Shown here piece by piece: positions 918-9,811 of a DNA stretch of 24,511 nt. Under the pieces are notes generated by a model. It did not search any database, was not told the DNA's origin, and worked only from the letters and a program-made list of their open reading frames with translations. The stretch is from a virus. Its lineage: Duplodnaviria; Heunggongvirae; Uroviricota; Caudoviricetes. The DNA lies in the IMG/VR virus record IMGVR_UViG_2874956758_000006, positions 1-24,511 of that record, one strand, 5' to 3'. Every line of letters begins with the position of its first letter. The stretch's first letter is position 1. The translations under genes were made by a program, and so were the position numbers.

Positions 918-1303
918 GCTACATACCATACAAAGATATCATTGGTGTATGGACTGTATGTCACGGACACACCGGAAAAGACATCATGCCTGGTAAAACG
1001 TATACCGAAGCAGAATGCAAAGCTCTCCTGAATAAAGACCTTGCCACTGTCGCCAGACAAATTAACCCGTACATCAAAGTCGATATACCGGAAACAACGC
1101 GCGGCGCTCTTTACTCGTTCGTTTACAACGTGGGCGCTGGCAATTTCAGAACATCGACGCTTCTTCGCAAAATAAACCAGGGCGATATCAAAGGCGCATG
1201 TGACCAGCTACGTCGCTGGACATATGCTGGCGGTAAGCAATGGAAAGGGCTGATGACCCGTCGTGAGATTGAGCGTGAAGTCTGTTTGTGGGGGCAGCAA
1301 TGA
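918..1303 (+). pseudogene. phage endolysin (T4-lysozyme-like/GH24, lambdoid R-type), 5'-truncated by IS2
   Basis: From 918 the frame reads [24 protein letters not shown]...[14 protein letters not shown], typical of lambdoid lysozymes; the first 13 codons of the listed ORF (881-919) are IS2-derived; stop TGA 1301-1303 overlaps the Rz ATG. Confidence 0.8.
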
Positions 1304-1776
1304 GCAGAGTCACCGCGATTATCTCCGCTCTGGTTATCTGCATCATCGTCTGCCTGTCATGGGCTGTTAATCATTACCGTGATAACGCCATTACCTACAA
1401 AGAGCAGCGCGACAAAAACGCAAGAGAACTGAAGCTGGCGAACGCAACCATTACTGACATGCAGCAGCGCCAGCGTGCTGCTGATGCACTCGATGCTAAA
1501 TACACGAAGGAGTTAGCCAATGCGAAAGCTGAAAATGATGCTCTTCGGAGCAAGCTTGATAATGGTGGTCGGGTGCTCGTCAAAGGAAAATGCCCTGTGC
1601 CATCCTCAGCCGAAACCTCCAGCGCCTCCGGCATGGGCAATGATGCCACCGTCGAACTCTCTCCAGTTGCTGGACGAAACGTTCTCGGTATCCGGGACGG
1701 AATCATCAGCGACCAGACAGCATTGAGAATGCTTCAGGAGTACATCAGGATCCAATGCCTTGGGGGGTGGCGGTAA
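1300..1776 (+). CDS. Rz-like i-spanin (inner-membrane spanin subunit)
   Basis: N-terminal TM segment ([17 protein letters not shown]), coiled-coil-rich body, ATGA overlap with upstream lysozyme stop, embedded Rz1 in +1 frame. Confidence 0.75.
1520..1726 (+). CDS. Rz1-like o-spanin lipoprotein, embedded within Rz
   Basis: Signal peptide plus lipobox (LIMVVGC), proline-rich stretch [11 protein letters not shown] as in lambda Rz1; SD AAGGAG at 1506-1511. Confidence 0.65.
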
Positions 1777-1858
1777 TTTTACTCATTATCCTTCAAATCA
1801 GATTCTGTTGTCAGAGGAATGGGGGAAGCTGGATTCGCAAGAGCTTTTTATGGGCAGT

Positions 1859-2368
1859 TTAGCTAAAAAAAGGCAACACGAAGCTAAAACTACCAACATA
1901 AAGTGCTGACCAGCTAGCAGCTGAAATCAGACTCACTGTATACACTTTCACTGGATGAAGTTGCAACATTCCTGCCACCAAAGGAGCAATATAACGCAGC
2001 ACGGCGATAAAGCGCGAAGTGAAAAGTATTGACACAGAGTTATTTTGCAACTGAAGGCGAACCCGTTCTATTGTATTGGAACGACTCGATATTATACATG
2101 CAAGTTGAGGGATATGCCCAATTATTATACCAAGATGGTAATTAACGATAGTACCGCACCATGCGCCACTCATGACCGTGATTCCAGCTTCCCATGGTGA
2201 AAGAGTCGTCTTGCTGACTGTAATTATAGTGGCCATCATAATTGATGCTGGTGGCAATATCGCCGAAATGAGTAAAGTGGATTTTGTGAACGCTATTATA
2301 AAAAGAAGCCCCCATAGGCGATATGGATGAAGTACAAAATAGTTCATCAAAGCATTTATCCACTCCAT
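1859..2368 (-). CDS. DedA/VTT-family membrane protein (start at internal ATG 2366-2368 with AAGGAA SD; ORF frame is open up to a GTG at 2437)
   Basis: C-terminal motif SRFIAVLRYIAPLVAGMLQL...SWSALYVG resembles E. coli DedA ARFVPIVRTFAPFVAGM...LLWVLLF (recalled from memory); IVNYHLG resembles AVNYTIG; several hydrophobic TM segments; AT-rich codon context. Confidence 0.55.
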   Translation of the reverse strand: MEWINALMNYFVLHPYRLWGLLFIIAFTKSTLLISAILPPASIMMATIITVSKTTLSPWEAGITVMSGAWCGTIVNYHLGIIIGHIPQLACIISSRSNTIERVRLQLQNNSVSILFTSRFIAVLRYIAPLVAGMLQLHPVKVYTVSLISAASWSALYVGSFSFVLPFFS

Positions 2369-2638
2369 CAATGTCTTTCCTTCTGTGAATTTTTCTTTGC
2401 TATTAACCGTGATACGACTTAATTTAGGCTTAAACACCTTACATTTACAAGGTACTCCTGTGGGGGGCCTGCCACGGAGCGTCGCAGGAGTGAGTGATGA
2501 GGAAGAATTAAAGCAACCTATTGTGACAGGCAGCGATAACAGTAAATCACAGGAAGCATAATCATGGCAAAACCGGACTGGGAGGTCATCGAAACGGCGT
2601 ACCAGTGTCGGGTGATGTATAGGGCATCTATTTATTCA

Positions 2639-3187
2639 TCATCTGAAAAAAGAGTTGTCCGGATGGGTTTCAATAACGGTTATGCTTGAAAGACGCGAGG
2701 GGTTAACCGTGAACTCATTTTCACCAAAATAACGACTGTGGGCATTGGGGCCAGCTAATATAGAACAGGCTGGAGCTTCAGCTCTTAACAGCAAACCTGG
2801 TGATTTGTATGCATTCAATCCACGACCAAACTTCTCGGCGACTGAAATGTCTGTTGTCCAGCAAAAGCCAATGAGCCCTTTATCGAACCTGTCTTTATTT
2901 TCTCCCCGATAAAGTACAAGGCTGTCGCTATCATATGTTGGCAATAAGAGCGTTAATAGTTTGAGGAGAATTGAGTCGTCGTTGATCTTTTCACGTATAA
3001 AGGCCCCAGACTCAACCCATTGACTATGGAATGAATTTTTCATGGCAATTGATACTGGCTTTGCGTTATCGATGCTTTTGATAAACTCAACCCATCTGTT
3101 CCGACTGTGAATGTAATCAAGAAATTTCCTCTCATCGGACACCTTCGGTTGAGGGCGGTTATAAGCTGCGAAATCTTCTAACTTCAT
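2639..3187 (-). CDS. hypothetical cargo protein, 182 aa, function unknown (speculative ADP-ribosyltransferase-like motifs)
   Basis: Real start taken as ATG 3185-3187 with SD GAGGA 4-5 nt upstream (the listed 314-aa ORF extends antisense into terS); ordered motifs Y93-R94-G-E, W110-T-T-D, E156-N-E158; AT-rich; divergent from terS with only 19 bp between start codons. Confidence 0.45.
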   Translation of the reverse strand: MKLEDFAAYNRPQPKVSDERKFLDYIHSRNRWVEFIKSIDNAKPVSIAMKNSFHSQWVESGAFIREKINDDSILLKLLTLLLPTYDSDSLVLYRGENKDRFDKGLIGFCWTTDISVAEKFGRGLNAYKSPGLLLRAEAPACSILAGPNAHSRYFGENEFTVNPSRLSSITVIETHPDNSFFR

Positions 3188-3206
3188 AATTTCCTCAGGT
3201 ATATCA

Positions 3207-3758
3207 ATGGCACTCACCGACAAACAAGAAATGTTCTGTCGCGAGTACCTCATCGATTTAAACTCCACGCAAGCGGCTATTCGGGCGGGGTACAGCGCAA
3301 AGACAGCTAACCGTACCGCATCCGAAAACCTGTCAAAACCTGACATACAATTCAGAATCGCCGAACTGAAAGCGCAACGCAATGATCTTGTTGGTATTAA
3401 TGCAGAATATGTACTTAATCGCCTTATTGAAATCGACCAGATGGATGTGCTCGACATTCTCCTGCAAAACGGTGAGCTAAAGCCCATTAAAGACTGGCCT
3501 AAGGTATGGCGCACAACGCTATCAGGAATGGATGTCGTGGAGATGGTATCCGCAGATAGCGCCGCACTTCTGAAGAAAATCAAATGGCCTGATAAGGTTA
3601 AAAACCTTGAGTTGCTTGGGCGCCATGTTTCTGTTCAGGCGTTTAAAGACAACGTCAAAAATGAAGTGACTGGCGCTGATGGAGGACCAGTCAGAACAGA
3701 AATTACCAAATTAACGCCTGAGCAGGCCGCAGAGGTGTATAGAAAAATGATGGGCTAA
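3207..3758 (+). CDS. terminase small subunit (P27/Terminase_2-type)
   Basis: N-terminus [34 protein letters not shown] is the conserved signature of P27-family small terminase subunits; directly precedes the large subunit. Confidence 0.8.
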
Positions 3759-3760
3759 GT

Positions 3761-5380
3761 ATGCCGTTACCATTCCCCTTCGATTTTAAACATCCTGATT
3801 ACCAGATGGTTTTTGAATGGCGGATGGAACGCCTACAGCGCATTCGCCAGAATCCTGAAATATTGCCTGCACTAAAACAGTTTTACCGTACCAACCCGGC
3901 TCAGTTCATTATCGACTGGGGCATGACAACGGACCCGCGTAATATTGATTATGGCCTGCCGGTGACCATTCCGTTTTTACTCTTCCCTAAGCAGGAGGAG
4001 TGGATCCACTGGATTATGGAACGCTGGAGCAATCGGGAGAATGGTATTACCGAAAAATCCCGTGAAATGGGGCTCAGTTGGACCGCGATCGGACTGGCCT
4101 GCTCGCTTTGTCTCTTCAACAAAGAAATGGTTATCGGTTTCGGCTCCCGTAAAGAGGAATACGTCGACAGCACCGGTGACCCGAAAGCATTGTTCTGGAA
4201 GGCGCGCAAGTTCGTGGAAACACTACCTGTAGAGTTTCGCGGTTCGTGGAGCGAGAAGAAGCACGCGCCATATATGCGTGTTGAGTTTCCTGAAACTGGC
4301 GCGGTTATCAAAGGTGAGGCTGGCGATAATATCGGTCGTGGTGACCGTACGGCCCTTTATTTTGTGGATGAGGCTGCTTTTCTCCAGCGACCATTACTTA
4401 TTGATGCCGCGCTTTCTCAGACAACCCGATGTCGTATCGATCTCTCATCGGTTAACGGCATGAACAACCCCTTCGCACAGAAGCGGCACAGTGGAAAAAT
4501 CCCGGTGTTTACGTTTCACTGGCGTAGCGATCCGCGTAAAGACGATGAGTGGTATCACAAGGAGTGCGAGAAAATTGATAACCCAGTCATCGTTGCCCAG
4601 GAACTGGATCTTAATTACCAGGCATCAGCAGAAGGCATCCTGATCTCCTCAGAATGGGTACAGGCTGCGGTTGATGCACATATCAGACTGGGCATTCAGC
4701 CCGGCGGCCAACGGCTTGGTGCAATGGATGTCGCCGACGAAGGGCGGGATAAAAACGCCTGTTCGCTCCGTTATGGCATCCTGCTGAATGACGTACAGGA
4801 GTGGTCAGGTAAGGGGAGTGACATCTATGACTCTGTGGTTAAGGTTTTTGGTCTGTGCGATGACTTTGGTGCCGATGAGTTTCGCTTTGATGAGGACGGA
4901 TTGGGTGCTGGCGTTCGTGGTGATGCGCGCGCTATCAACGAACTGCGTGAAGCGGAGGGCATCTGTCAAATCACCGCCACTCCATTCCGGGGCAGCGGGA
5001 GCGTGTTTCATCCTGAAAATGAAGCTGTTCCCGGTGATAATGGTAAACCGGCTCGTCTGAATAAGGACTTTTTTGTCAATGCCAAAGCCCAGGGGGGGTG
5101 GCATCTTCGCAAATTATTCCGCAATACATTTCGTGCACTACAGGGTATGGAGTATGACCCGGATGAGATTATTTCCATCAGCAGCACAATGGAAAATAAA
5201 GACCGGCTGTTGATGGAGCTGTCACAACCTACCTGGTCAAAAAATGCCACCGGAAAAATTCTTGTGGATAAGCAACCTGACGGAACGAAATCTCCAAACC
5301 TGGCTGATTCTGTGATGATTGCTTATGCCCCGATGGAAATGCCCATCGTAATTTCTGATGACTTTATGGAGTGGATCTGA
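3761..5380 (+). CDS. terminase large subunit (539 aa)
   Basis: Size and position; Walker-B-like [11 protein letters not shown]-terminal nuclease-like region; tightly coupled to terS (3-nt gap) and to the downstream gene (overlap). Confidence 0.8.
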
Positions 5381-6447
5381 TGTGGCCGTTTAAACGAAAA
5401 GAACCGTCAGCGCCGGCGGTACCGGACAAACAACCTGAACCACAGCCACCGGAAATTAACGATGAGGTCATCGCTTCCGTCCGGCAGAAACCACGGAGGG
5501 AGTTTGTTCGCTATGAGCCACCACCGGGCGTTATCCCGGCACCGGTTCGCGACGCTGTGCTGGCAATGGATGCAACACCGTATGACACCCTGAACAGTCA
5601 TTATCCTGATTTTGTTTATGGTGGTTTCCCGGGCTATCCGTATCTGGCACTTCAGGCGCAGTTACCGGAGTACCGGCGTATGGTCAGTGTGCTTGCCGAG
5701 GAGATGACCCGTAAGTGGATAAAGGTTAAGGCGGTCGGAGAAGGGGACGACAGCCACGCGTCACGCATAGCGCAGCTTACTGACGTACTGGAGCACTATA
5801 ACGTACAGGACGTTTTCAGACTGGCGATTGAGCACGACGGCTTTTTCGGGCGAGGGCAGATTTATATTGATGTGCGTTCGCCATCGGGTATATCTGCCTG
5901 GACTGACCCGGCGGAGCTGGGATCCGGACTGTTTATTTCCGACAAAAAAATCCCGAAAGGTTCCCTGCTGGGGCTTCGTGTTATTGAACCCGTCTGGACG
6001 TATCCGGGTATATATAACGCGGATAATCCGCTGAGTGATGATTTTTACCGTCCGTCCGAATGGTACGTAATGGGAAAAACGGTTCACGCCAGCCGCATGA
6101 TTGATCTGATCTCCCGTCCGGTTCCGGACATGCTGAAGCCGGCCTACAACTTTGGCGGCCTGTCACTGGTTCAGATTGCTGAGCCTTATGTTAATAACTG
6201 GCTGCGAACACGCGACAGCGTGGGCGATATGCTGCATTCGTTTTCGCTGAGCGGGATTAAGACGGATATGACACAGGTATTAAGTGGTAAAAGGGACCCG
6301 AATTACGCAAAACGCGCGGAGTTGTTTAACCGTACCCGTGATAACCGCGGGCTGCTGATGCTGGACAAGACGAACGAAGAGTTTTTCCAGTTCAACACTC
6401 CCCTGAGCGGCCTCGACACCCTTCAGGCGCAGGCAGAAAAATTTTGA
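5380..6447 (+). CDS. putative phage portal protein (possibly C-terminally shortened)
   Basis: First gene after terL, start ATG 5380 overlapping the terL stop (TGATG); acidic with a proline-rich N-terminus; only ~355 aa, which is short for a portal. Confidence 0.5.
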
Positions 6448-6451
6448 CGAA

Positions 6452-7006
6452 ATGGCCCTGCGGCTGGCGAGGCGGTTTGCCGGTGATGTCCTGAAAAACA
6501 GCGATGCGTCACTGTACACTGCGCTCCGTGATGCCGGGTTTACGGTTCCTTTCCGTATGACAACGGAGATGAATACCGCACTTCAGGCCAGCATCACGGA
6601 GAATGTGAACCTCATTCGCTCCATCCCGCAGCAACATCTCCCCCAGGTGGAAACACTGGTCATGCAGTCTGTTGGCCGGGGACGTGACCTGAAAACGCTG
6701 ACCGATGAACTGGAAAAACGTTACGGCATCACACGACGGCGCGCGGCGCTGATTGCCCGCGACCAGAACAATAAGGCAACGTCGGTAATGCAGGCCGCCA
6801 GACAGCGTTCGGTGGGTATCACTGAAGGTGTCTGGAGGCATTCCCGCGCGGGTAAAACATGGCGTCCGTCGCATGTGAAGGCGAACGGTAAATGGTTTGA
6901 CCTGCGAAAGGGGATGTTTCTGGATGGTAAGTGGGTACTGCCGGGCGAAGAAATCAACTGCCGGTGTGGCTGGGAGGCCGTTATTCCCGGACTGGAGAAA
7001 AAATGA
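6452..7006 (+). CDS. phage head morphogenesis protein (Mu gpF / SPP1 gp7-like domain)
   Basis: C-terminal motif [13 protein letters not shown] and the [14 protein letters not shown] region typical of Mu-F-like minor head proteins; 4-nt gap after the portal stop. Confidence 0.6.
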
Positions 7007-7694: not shown

Positions 7695-8915
7695 TGTAGA
7701 TTCAATTGGTCAACGCAACAGTTATGTGAAAACATGGGGTTGCGGAGGTTTTTTGAATGAGACGAACATTTACAGCAGAGGAAAAAGCCTCTGTTTTTGA
7801 ACTATGGAAGAACGGAACAGGCTTCAGTGAAATAGCGAATATCCTGGGTTCAAAACCCGGAACGATCTTCACTATGTTAAGGGATACTGGCGGCATAAAA
7901 CCCCATGAGCGTAAGCGGGCTGTAGCTCACCTGACACTGTCTGAGCGCGAGGAGATACGAGCTGGTTTGTCAGCCAAAATGAGCATTCGTGCGATAGCTA
8001 CTGCGCTGAATCGCAGTCCTTCGACGATCTCACGTGAAGTTCAGCGTAATCGGGGCAGACGCTATTACAAAGCTGTTGATGCTAATAACCGAGCCAACAG
8101 AATGGCGAAAAGGCCAAAACCGTGCTTACTGGATCAAAATTTACCATTGCGAAAGCTTGTTCTGGAAAAGCTGGAGATGAAATGGTCTCCAGAGCAAATA
8201 TCAGGATGGTTAAGGCGAACAAAACCACGTCAAAAAACGCTGCGAATATCACCTGAGACAATTTATAAAACGCTGTACTTTCGTAGCCGTGAAGCGCTAC
8301 ACCACCTGAATATACAGTATCTGCGACGGTCGCATAGCCTTCGCCATGGCAGGCGTCATACCCGCAAAGGCGAAAGAGGTACGATTAACATAGTGAACGG
8401 AACACCAATTCACGAACGTTCCCGAAATATCGATAACAGACGCTCTCTGGGACATTGGGAGGGCGATTTAGTCTCAGGTACAAAAAACTCTCATATAGCC
8501 ACACTTGTAGACCGAAAATCACGTTATACGATCATCCTTAGACTCAGGGGCAAAGATTCTGTCTCAGTAAATCAGGCTCTTACCGACAAATTCCTGAGTT
8601 TACCGTCAGAACTCAGAAAATCACTGACATGGGACAGAGGAATGGAACTGGCCAGACATCTAGAATTTACTGTCAGCACCGGCGTTAAAGTTTACTTCTG
8701 CGATCCTCAGAGTCCTTGGCAGCGGGGAACAAATGAGAACACAAATGGGCTAATTCGGCAGTACTTTCCTAAAAAGACATGTCTTGCCCAATATACTCAA
8801 CATGAACTAGATCTGGTTGCTGCTCAGCTAAACAACAGACCGAGAAAGACACTGAAGTTCAAAACACCGAAAGAGATAATTGAAAGGGGTGTTGCATTGA
8901 CAGATTGAATCTACA
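7695..8915 (+). mobile_element. IS30, complete (1221 bp) with 2-bp AC target duplication
   Basis: Left end TGTAGATTCAATTGGTCAACGCAACAG at 7695, right end ...GTTGCATTGACAGATTGAATCTACA ending 8915; AC at 7693-7694 and 8916-8917. Confidence 0.9.
7757..8908 (+). CDS. insI: IS30 transposase (383 aa)
   Basis: 383-aa ORF recognised as the IS30 transposase, contained within the IS30 inverted repeats. Confidence 0.88.
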   Translation: MRRTFTAEEKASVFELWKNGTGFSEIANILGSKPGTIFTMLRDTGGIKPHERKRAVAHLTLSEREEIRAGLSAKMSIRAIATALNRSPSTISREVQRNRGRRYYKAVDANNRANRMAKRPKPCLLDQNLPLRKLVLEKLEMKWSPEQISGWLRRTKPRQKTLRISPETIYKTLYFRSREALHHLNIQYLRRSHSLRHGRRHTRKGERGTINIVNGTPIHERSRNIDNRRSLGHWEGDLVSGTKNSHIATLVDRKSRYTIILRLRGKDSVSVNQALTDKFLSLPSELRKSLTWDRGMELARHLEFTVSTGVKVYFCDPQSPWQRGTNENTNGLIRQYFPKKTCLAQYTQHELDLVAAQLNNRPRKTLKFKTPKEIIERGVALTD

Positions 8916-8992: not shown

Positions 8993-9811
8993 ATGTGTCA
9001 GGTATTTGGTGTATCCAGGAGCGGTTATTACAACTGGGTACAGCATGAACCCTCAGACAGAAAACAAAGTGATGAGCGGCTAAAACTGGAGATTAAGGTG
9101 GCACATATCCGCACTCGCGAAACATATGGAACCCGGCGGCTCCAGACGGAGCTGGCAGAGAATGGCATCATCGTTGGTCATGACCGACTGGCACGTCTTC
9201 GTAAGGAGCTAAGGCTACGCTGTAAGCAGAAACGCAAGTTCAGAGCGACTACGAACTCGAACCATAATCTGCCAGTTGCGCCAAATCTGCTGAACCAGAC
9301 GTTCGCTCCTACAGCACCAAATCAGGTCTGGGTGGCGGACCTGACGTATGTTGCCACACAGGAGGGATGGTTGTACCTCGCTGGCGTCAAAGATGTTTAT
9401 ACGTGCGAAATTGTCGGCTACGCCATGGGAGAGCGCATGACAAAAGAGCTGACAGGTAAAGCCCTGTTTATGGCGCTCAGGAGCCAGCGCCCACCTGCCG
9501 GGCTAATCCACCACTCTGATCGAGGTTCACAGTACTGCGCATACGATTACCGGGTCATACAGGAGCAGTCTGGTCTGAAAACATCAATGTCGCGTAAAGG
9601 TAACTGTTACGACAACGCTCCGATGGAAAGCTTCTGGGGAACGCTGAAAAATGAGAGCCTGAGCCACTATCGTTTTAATAACCGGGATGAAGCCATCTCA
9701 GTAATACGGGAATACATTGAGATTTTCTACAATCGTCAGCGTCGTCACTCTCGTCTGGGGAATATCTCCCCGGCAGCCTTCAGGGAAAAATATCATCAGA
9801 TGGCTGCTTAA
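8993..9811 (+). CDS. IS600 orfB (DDE transposase catalytic ORF; normally expressed as an OrfAB fusion by -1 frameshift)
   Basis: IS3-family integrase-core motifs (WVADLTYV..., HSDRGSQY..., DNAPMESFWGTLK); lies between orfA and the right inverted repeat. Confidence 0.85.
   Translation: MCQVFGVSRSGYYNWVQHEPSDRKQSDERLKLEIKVAHIRTRETYGTRRLQTELAENGIIVGHDRLARLRKELRLRCKQKRKFRATTNSNHNLPVAPNLLNQTFAPTAPNQVWVADLTYVATQEGWLYLAGVKDVYTCEIVGYAMGERMTKELTGKALFMALRSQRPPAGLIHHSDRGSQYCAYDYRVIQEQSGLKTSMSRKGNCYDNAPMESFWGTLKNESLSHYRFNNRDEAISVIREYIEIFYNRQRRHSRLGNISPAAFREKYHQMAA

Follow-up and report, generated by a model that had tools for sequence, protein, structure and literature searches.

In phages, ADP-ribosyltransferases (ARTs) are often encoded beside the terminase and the portal protein (Iyer et al., 2022, PMC9503650, section 3.7.1); the same authors suggested that such terminase-linked enzymes act in head packaging or protect the packaging machinery. 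Phages and plasmids also carry AcrIF11, a standalone ART whose specificity was proposed to be set by a poorly conserved helical region (PMC11383003). DarT and CmdT, in turn, are ART-fold effectors in phage-host conflict that belong to DarTG and CmdTAC, systems of two and three genes with a dedicated antitoxin. Here we analyse a 24,511-nucleotide stretch of DNA from a Caudoviricetes virus (IMG/VR record IMGVR_UViG_2874956758_000006; the whole stretch is referred to as the window), in which two minus-strand open reading frames (ORFs) lie between the spanin genes Rz/Rz1 and terS, the gene of the small terminase subunit. One (2639–3187, stop codon 2639–2641) encodes a protein of 182 amino acids that is predicted to be an R-S-E (cholera-toxin-like) mono-ADP-ribosyltransferase, its catalysis and target class being inferred; the other (1859–2371) encodes a DedA/VTT-family inner-membrane protein. 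An earlier, sequence-only reading had recognised both genes and had combined them in one module. Our comparisons show that they belong to different mosaic blocks, joined at a recombination scar, and do not form a two-gene system.

The 182-residue protein resembles the ARTs Alt, ModA and ModB of phage T4 and the terminase- and portal-linked enzymes in being a phage-borne R-S-E-type ART beside packaging genes. It differs from this whole group in that its gene runs opposite to the packaging operon in most prophages, so that it would not be co-expressed with head proteins; its family is free of MuF or portal fusions and occurs also on plasmids, islands and chromosomes. AcrIF11 (6kyf) is a diphtheria-toxin-like enzyme with an H-F-H-D active site, whereas the 182-residue protein has neither sequence homology to it nor that active site, and no link of its family to CRISPR or aca genes was seen. 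Some family members adjoin AbiD and toxin-antitoxin genes, which recalls the conflict setting of DarTG and CmdTAC; unlike these systems, the family has no conserved partner and no PADLOC match. With the R-S-E/ARTC enzymes (Vis toxin, 4xzj; ART2.2, 1gxy; C3 exoenzymes; the Rhs toxins TreX/TreTu, 8s2m and 7zhl) the protein shares a predicted split β-sheet core, an Arg that follows an aromatic residue on β1, a β2 that ends in a hydroxyl residue and a β5 that opens with E-x-E, as well as an N-terminal helical region and a size close to that of small Pfam ARTs (182 versus 188 residues). It is set apart from them by the lack of detectable sequence or profile similarity, by an invariant Trp in the middle motif and by a first Glu that is better kept than the second; moreover, the family lacks a secretion signal, a delivery domain and an immunity gene.

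The two minus-strand genes belong to different mosaic blocks

The relationship between the two genes was addressed by a megablast comparison of window positions 1700–3400 against 5426 complete Escherichia coli genomes. Both genes were adjacent in a single genome (RMDEC465). The right half of the segment, comprising the gene of the 182-residue protein and terS, was present in 91 genomes, nearly all of them without a DedA gene beside it, and the carriers included E. coli B (REL606, BL21), E. coli C and the enteropathogenic strain E2348/69 (E2348C_RS13455). Conversely, the left half, composed of Rz and the DedA gene, recurred beside a different terminase without the gene of the 182-residue protein, as in the megablast loci H2–H5. 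No DedA gene adjoined a homologue of the 182-residue protein in about 20 other contexts of the family.

The junction itself retains the trace of the joining event. The ends of the megablast blocks, together with a three-way DNA alignment, define a segment of about 48 bp (2551–2603) that the two parental phage types have in common, and the 267-bp gap between the two genes holds a plus-strand gene remnant exactly at this block boundary. The remnant is a fossil terS-type ORF of 41 codons (2564–2689, plus strand, 'MAKPDWEVIE...') that diverges after about 15 codons and matches the start of a 254-residue protein encoded just upstream of terL in a near-identical DedA-carrying locus (L003), 'MAKPDWEAIESAYRAG...'. 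The parent terS-type gene ('MAKPDWEAIE...') is intact in the DedA-type phage, and the same terS remnant flanks the gene of the 182-residue protein in E. coli B REL606. It follows that a block consisting of this gene and a Terminase_2-type terS once replaced that other terS, and that a later recombination inside the terS remnant brought the DedA gene to its present position.

In the sequence-only reading, a soluble ART-like enzyme and a DedA-like membrane protein had been taken together as one acquired toxin, defence or host-modifying module. This model can draw on the common minus-strand orientation of the two genes, on their being richer in AT than their flanks and on the lack of a detected terminator between them. 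The G+C content of the DedA gene (0.415) and of the gene of the 182-residue protein (0.428) indeed lies below that of Rz (0.532), terL (0.504), terS (0.466) and the window as a whole (0.486); the AT-rich locus stood up to this extent, whereas its two-gene outline did not, the dip being modest, extending over intergenic DNA and terS as well and delimiting no island of two genes. Because the genes are adjacent in just one of the 5426 genomes, because each occurs alone, and because a recombination scar lies at their junction, we conclude that they are no unit. The pairing of enzyme and membrane protein was thus not borne out, the family of the 182-residue protein having no conserved neighbour in more than 15 contexts, and we regard a single two-gene module as very improbable.

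The DedA gene occupies a cargo slot downstream of the lysis cassette

The assignment of the left-hand gene to the DedA/VTT family, first made by eye, was confirmed by Pfam (PF09335, E=2e-13), with 51.3 bits against a gathering score of 33.9 and 117 of 123 profile positions covered. Its start codon is most likely TTG 2371 or ATG 2368, giving 170 or 169 residues, with AAGGAAAG ahead of it, and PGAP makes the same call in the near-identical loci L001 and L003; a GTG at 2437 was considered and rejected in favour of this call. The protein has multiple hydrophobic segments and shares these and an above-threshold VTT domain with the DedA/VTT family (E. coli YqjA, YghB and DedA; the UptA undecaprenyl-phosphate transporters). 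Compared to the characterised members it is short (170 residues) and prophage-borne, and its NCBIfam matches are weak: identity at equivalog level was not reached, with 30 bits against a cut-off of 236 for DedA (PRK10847) and 19 bits against 250 for UptA.

The sequence-only reading held that lambdoid phages have normally just cos or pac DNA between spanins and terminase. This premise was wrong, since related phages carry cargo genes there, among them Acb2/Tad1-like, KilA-N, HNH, pRha and DUF2441 genes and others. In phage lambda, the lipoprotein gene bor sits between the lysis and terminase genes, downstream of Rz in the late region and on the opposite strand. Both the DedA gene and the ART-like gene resemble bor in slot and in opposite-strand orientation; their products, a DedA/VTT membrane protein and an ART-like protein, are unrelated to the lambda lipoprotein. 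In short, the DedA gene is a moron in its own right that encodes a membrane protein and goes with the lysis cassette, at the slot that lambda gives to bor. In a Pantoea prophage (L006 7638–7919), a gene of the Acb2/Tad1-hairpin family, a family of anti-CBASS/anti-Thoeris sponges, adjoins the ART-like gene on the other strand of the lysis-to-terS interval.

The 182-residue protein is predicted to adopt an ADP-ribosyltransferase fold

The gene of the 182-residue protein starts, as noted before, 19 bp from the divergent ATG of terS (3188–3206) and is preceded by a GAGG Shine-Dalgarno sequence. Compared to alleles of 81% and 71% identity, the ratio of non-synonymous to synonymous substitution rates was 0.28 and 0.16, respectively, and the gene was full-length in all 91 E. 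coli carrier genomes. It is thus a real gene under purifying selection. One IMG/VR prophage allele (L052 6001–6549, 94% identity) has a frameshifted 3' end, showing that the gene is occasionally a pseudogene.

From the letters alone, three motifs had been picked out as a loose echo of the ART catalytic triad, and inspection of the codons located them at Y93-R94 (2906–2911), W110-T-T (W110-T111 at 2855–2860) and E156-N-E158 (2714–2722). When conservation was counted in 120 homologues sharing at most 50% identity, these three motifs proved to be the most conserved positions of the family. R94, G107 and W110 were found in all 120 sequences, G95 and a Thr or Ser at position 111 in 119 each and E156 in 117, while position 158 was Glu in 108 sequences and Gln in 8 more. 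Further conserved columns were [Y/F]93, [E/D]96, H150-S151 and D162.

An AlphaFold2 model computed from a 27-sequence alignment reached a mean pLDDT (predicted local distance difference test) of 91.3 and a pTM (predicted template modelling score) of 0.83, and showed five N-terminal helices up to residue 81, followed by a β-rich core. Its Foldseek matches were dominated by one superfamily, with a split β-sheet as in solved ARTs; against the PDB, ART classes ranked first, with E-values that were not significant. A structure search of BFVD returned, for the most part, viral proteins that are uncharacterised; its weak matches included DarT and ART-PolyVal. In the model, R94 lies in β1 (residues 90–97), W110-T111 in β2 (109–111), which leads into a helix, and E156-x-E158 at the start of β5 (158–161), after a loop with a short helix. 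The initial guess of an ADP-ribosyltransferase thus gained support from the predicted structure, which places the motifs on β1, β2 and β5 of an ART-like fold. Of the features that characterise R-S-E enzymes, the Arg following an aromatic residue on β1 is present as [Y/F]93-R94-G95, and β5 begins, behind a loop of ARTT type, with a [Q/E]-x-E motif. The counterpart of S-T-S on β2 is [S/C/A]109-W110-[T/S]111, with a hydroxyl residue in 119 of 120 homologues, an invariant Trp at the centre and Ser at the first position in 38 of the 120.

As a control, we modelled in the same way a Pfam-positive ART (PF01129/PF03496, 188 residues) from Aliivibrio that is encoded 1.7 kb from a family member. Its model displayed a helical N-terminus of about 71 residues, β1 with R83, a short helix, β2 with S-T-S at 109–111, further strands, a loop helix, E145-E-E147 at β5 and finally β6, that is, the same order of elements as the 182-residue protein. 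The short spacing of 17 residues between the Arg and the S-T-S equivalent, which the sequence-only reading had counted as a weakness, is not disqualifying, given that this true PF01129 ART of similar size has a spacing of 25 residues.

According to the model, the protein is divided into two parts. The N-terminal helical region (residues 1–88, positions 2924–3187 on the minus strand), delimited by the predicted helices at 3–81 and by the column entropies and counts, is itself uneven: residues 1–50 vary across the family, with a column entropy of 3.35 bits, compared to 2.3 bits for residues 51–88, and the conserved residues of the region are W57, G61, R65, D70-D71, P83, Y85 and G87. The predicted ART core (residues 89–182, positions 2642–2923 on the minus strand) comprises β1 with Y93-R94-G95-E96, β2 with C109-W110-T111, an ARTT-like loop with H150-S151 and β5 with E156-N-E158. 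If the protein is an ART of this type, NAD+ (nicotinamide adenine dinucleotide) would bind between β1 with R94, β2 with the [S/C/A]109-W110-[T/S]111 motif, and the loop and β5 with E156-x-E158. An E-x-E motif is typical of arginine-specific ARTs.

The family is widespread on mobile elements and has no conserved partner

Homology searches retrieved 36 close relatives of the protein and 350 by profile, and an exhaustive HMMER search with a cut-off of E≤1e-3 recovered 1012 proteins, each representing a cluster at 50% identity; with few exceptions they are 160–280 residues long. In PHROGs the protein falls into phrog_30882, annotated as 'unknown function'. PADLOC-DB v2 contained no defence model that matched it, a hit to RT_UG26 at E=0.034 being noise, and we found no literature on the family or on its member WP_000762846. 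The family is unannotated in every library searched, while ARTs in phage-host conflict are, as a kind, already well known. One metagenomic protein of 433 residues (P0294) carries a tandem copy of the whole domain, in which the loop is shortened and the equivalent of E158 is the sole Glu left ('THEIVVDP').

The genomic settings of the family are diverse. In a Xenorhabdus prophage the gene occupies, as in the window, the interval between lysis and terminase genes, but there it shares the orientation of the late genes and precedes an Sf6-type terS; another group of temperate phages has it between a DnaB gene and a ParA-like gene. Other copies adjoin integrases and are neighboured by AbiD/Abi_2, SLFN/AlbA_2, KAP NTPase, Panacea antitoxin and YafO genes; further ones reside on plasmids for which conjugation or mobilization is predicted, and two of these copies form part of long arrays of small hypothetical genes that all point the same way. 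The Pandoraea apista plasmid pPA35 (L060 6962–7465) gave two tblastn matches to the family, and the one that was examined lies in a long run of small co-oriented genes; a Burkholderia plasmid (L061) has a run of small genes similar to that of pPA35. In Aliivibrio fischeri (L013), the PF01129/PF03496 ART and the family member 1.7 kb away (3704–4270 and 6001–6558) stand among small same-strand genes, in what looks like a cassette array.

Across more than 15 of these contexts we detected no conserved neighbour or partner and no antitoxin or immunity gene such as a macrodomain, ARH or Xre gene, and flanking ORFs of similar size in different loci proved mutually unrelated. An adjoining conserved antitoxin or immunity gene, which marks the ARTs of toxin-antitoxin and immunity systems (DarTG, CmdTAC, Tre1-Tri1, ParST), was thus not found in this sample. 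With regard to a possible counter-defence role, for instance in the 'leading region' of plasmids, a Pfam survey of 54 neighbouring proteins revealed no known anti-defence marker.

The position head-to-head with terS is conserved

In nine diverged loci, a homologue of the 182-residue protein was encoded head-to-head with a Terminase_2-type terS, at a distance of always 18–20 bp. The proteins of these loci are 42–97% and their terS products 58–98% identical to those of the window, and since the two values are uncorrelated, alleles have been shuffled while the arrangement was kept. In lambdoid prophages, this terS is the constant divergent neighbour of the ART-like gene. In the window the divergent spacer of 19 bp (3188–3206) accommodates back-to-back ribosome-binding sites (CCTC/AGGT) and, on the minus strand, an extended-minus-10-like element, TGaTATACC.

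The 5' end of terS is itself unusually constant. Comparing the window with loci L006, L037, L038, L041–L044, L054 and L055, we found 96% codon identity over the first 15 codons of terS (window 3207–3251) as compared to 41–62% elsewhere in the gene, the terS proteins being otherwise 58–78% identical. The sequence-only reading had postulated a promoter of the divergent gene inside terS. We considered these invariant 45 nt as that promoter and rejected the idea, as the same sequence is present in Cronobacter phage phiES15, where no divergent gene exists and a same-strand DUF2441 gene lies upstream of terS, and in Cronobacter phage ES2 (L055 2546–2980), where the divergent slot holds a different gene, of 144 codons, annotated 'transcriptional regulator' and placed 20 bp from terS. 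Neither the ES2 gene nor the DUF2441 gene of phiES15 is related to the 182-residue family. On the basis of these alignments, the constraint on the 5' end belongs to terS itself or to a module boundary; it could reflect a translation signal, a pac-related element or a recombination linker. The head-to-head position is a generic slot whose edge is fixed and whose cargo can be exchanged, and it is no evidence of functional coupling. Inspection by eye revealed two candidate promoter elements for the minus strand, an exact TTGACA (3336–3331) that is not accompanied by a -10 element and the TGaTATACC of the spacer, which would give a nearly leaderless mRNA.

Both genes reside in a decayed lambdoid prophage

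The element that hosts both genes is a heavily decayed, now defective lambdoid prophage of Shigella/E. coli. At its left end, an IS2-type transposase ORF (1–906; IS, insertion sequence) cuts off the 5' end of the lysozyme gene (881–1303), which has lost about 37 N-terminal codons compared to rrrD of locus L001; a second IS2 copy at about 14989–16214 on the minus strand carries the same 301-residue transposase ORF (15309–16214). The lysis cassette ends with the Rz spanin gene (1288–1776, plus strand; Pfam Phage_lysis, E=1e-29), in which Rz1 (1520–1726) is embedded, and Rz is co-linear with the DedA gene in loci L001 and L003 as well. On the other side of the two cargo genes, terS of the Terminase_2 type (3207–3758, plus strand; PF03592, E=4.5e-39) is followed by terL (3761–5380) and by a portal gene that is truncated, covering positions 2–261 of the 357 in the Phage_portal_3 profile; a MuF fragment lies downstream of it. 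For the DUF1073 portal-type gene after terL in related loci (L001 9681–10220; L002 7822–8580), PGAP gives the name 'anti-CBASS protein Acb1 family protein'; in Pfam the window homologue matches Phage_portal_3, and the PGAP name looks doubtful.

The remainder of the window contains an IS30-like transposase (7757–8908), an IS3-family transposase (8993–9811), a DnaB-like gene (10920–12074) in a replication module that is inverted to the opposite strand and, further along, RecE and xis-int. No head or tail genes were identified among the window ORFs scanned. A protein identical to the 182-residue one is on record from Shigella dysenteriae (WP_284514356.1), and the identical DedA protein from S. 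dysenteriae and S. boydii; the window thus probably derives from Shigella.

Discussion

Taken together, the data are probably best explained by two accessory genes that are unrelated to each other and were brought together by recombination: a soluble, standalone R-S-E ART travelling as mobile cargo and a separate DedA moron. Several observations weigh against this account. With thresholds of E≤1 for the window protein and E≤0.01 for the 120 homologues, Pfam gave no match, and searches of NCBIfam and of the PDB (phmmer and hmmsearch) gave no match to any known ART. When the family profile was aligned by hhalign with the PF01129/PF03496 ART, the outcome was not significant for the single sequence nor for a 10-sequence alignment, the probability against the alignment being below 1%. 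The middle motif reads [S/C/A]-W-[T/S] instead of S-T-S, and conservation is higher at E156 than at E158, the reverse of what the canonical [QE]-x-E pattern shows. Singletons of the family are found among housekeeping genes on the chromosomes of Methylomonas, Cycloclasticus and Dasania, the link to defence islands is weak, with PADLOC models matched by just 5 of 64 neighbours in non-prophage contexts, and no isolated phage in INPHARED encodes the protein. In addition, a scan for consensus sigma-70 promoters revealed no minus-strand site upstream of 3187. Because the profile comparison was not significant, the ART assignment rests on predicted fold, motifs and topology.

The preferred reading can be weighed against two others. 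The protein might have an ART-like or an unrelated fold with a structural or regulatory role, the motif match being a coincidence or an AlphaFold bias. This appears improbable, since R94, E156, E158 and T/S111 are invariant polar or charged residues in more than 100 divergent sequences, which indicates an active site, since they coincide with canonical ART positions and since the fold matches point predominantly to a single superfamily. Alternatively, the protein could consume NAD+ as an NADase or NAD+ phosphorylase, in the manner of Tne2, Tse6 or RES toxins, and serve as a single-gene abortive-infection toxin that is curbed by its own N-terminal region. The conserved triad, R-[S/T]-E-x-E, is unlike the RES pattern, in which S and E are replaced by Y and N (PMC9503650, section 3.7.4). 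Moreover, residues 51–88 are conserved like the core, so that they seem to belong to the enzyme and not to a sensor that evolves fast, and known NADase toxins are all paired with immunity proteins; we therefore rate an NAD+-consuming toxin as just as improbable as a non-enzymatic role.

Within the preferred reading of a standalone ART, the variable first 50 or so residues would set the choice of target; they are a plausible specificity element, as has been proposed for the helical region of AcrIF11. Members of the family lack a partner that would confer immunity or act as antitoxin, and they travel with temperate phages, with plasmids and as cargo near integrases, so that the protein would most likely be a target-specific modifier in conflicts between mobile elements and hosts rather than a general toxin. 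With respect to timing, the layout of the window implies that late transcripts extending beyond the lysis genes would cross the gene in antisense direction and shut it down in the lytic phase, an arrangement that fits expression while late transcription is off. Tentatively, and aware that it may well prove wrong, we slightly favour a function expressed in the lysogen, be it exclusion of other phages, defence against them or modification of a host protein, because the gene is antisense to the late operon and intact in decayed prophages (the window, E. coli B). Counter-defence is almost as likely, given the distribution over phages and plasmids and the existence of co-oriented copies. An early-expressed, standalone ART would in that case inactivate a host immune protein by ADP-ribosylation, as AcrIF11 does to Cas8f. 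We nonetheless consider this unlikely, seeing that every prophage of the Terminase_2 type has the gene in antisense orientation to its late operon, that the gene is intact in defective prophages, where a phage-only function is useless, and that chromosomal singletons also occur. Furthermore, AcrIF11 is of the diphtheria-toxin-like (H-F-H-D) and not of the R-S-E type and shares no sequence similarity with the protein, and the 54 neighbouring proteins included no known anti-defence marker.

Two wider proposals follow from the preferred reading. It is possible, if short of probable, that the 182-residue protein is the first member of an undescribed family of partner-less R-S-E ARTs, as large as some 1000 clusters at 50% identity, which act as single-gene effectors when mobile elements and bacteria are in conflict and represent either a new prophage-encoded anti-phage defence or a new enzymatic anti-defence. 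In a more speculative version, the fixed position at terS would signify a tie to DNA packaging, for example by modifying the terminase of a rival or by shielding the packaging machinery from immunity.

For the reading of mosaic prophages, our analysis means that AT-rich neighbour genes need not form a system: here, a 48-bp remnant marks the joining of independent cargo genes. ADP-ribosylation is a recurring weapon between phages and bacteria, as exemplified by Alt/Mod of T4, DarT, CmdT and AcrIF11, and, if our reading is true, an unannotated and widespread family would add another. Since this antitoxin-free family resides in common laboratory strains (ECB_RS03905/WP_000762846.1 in REL606 and BL21), its role is directly testable.

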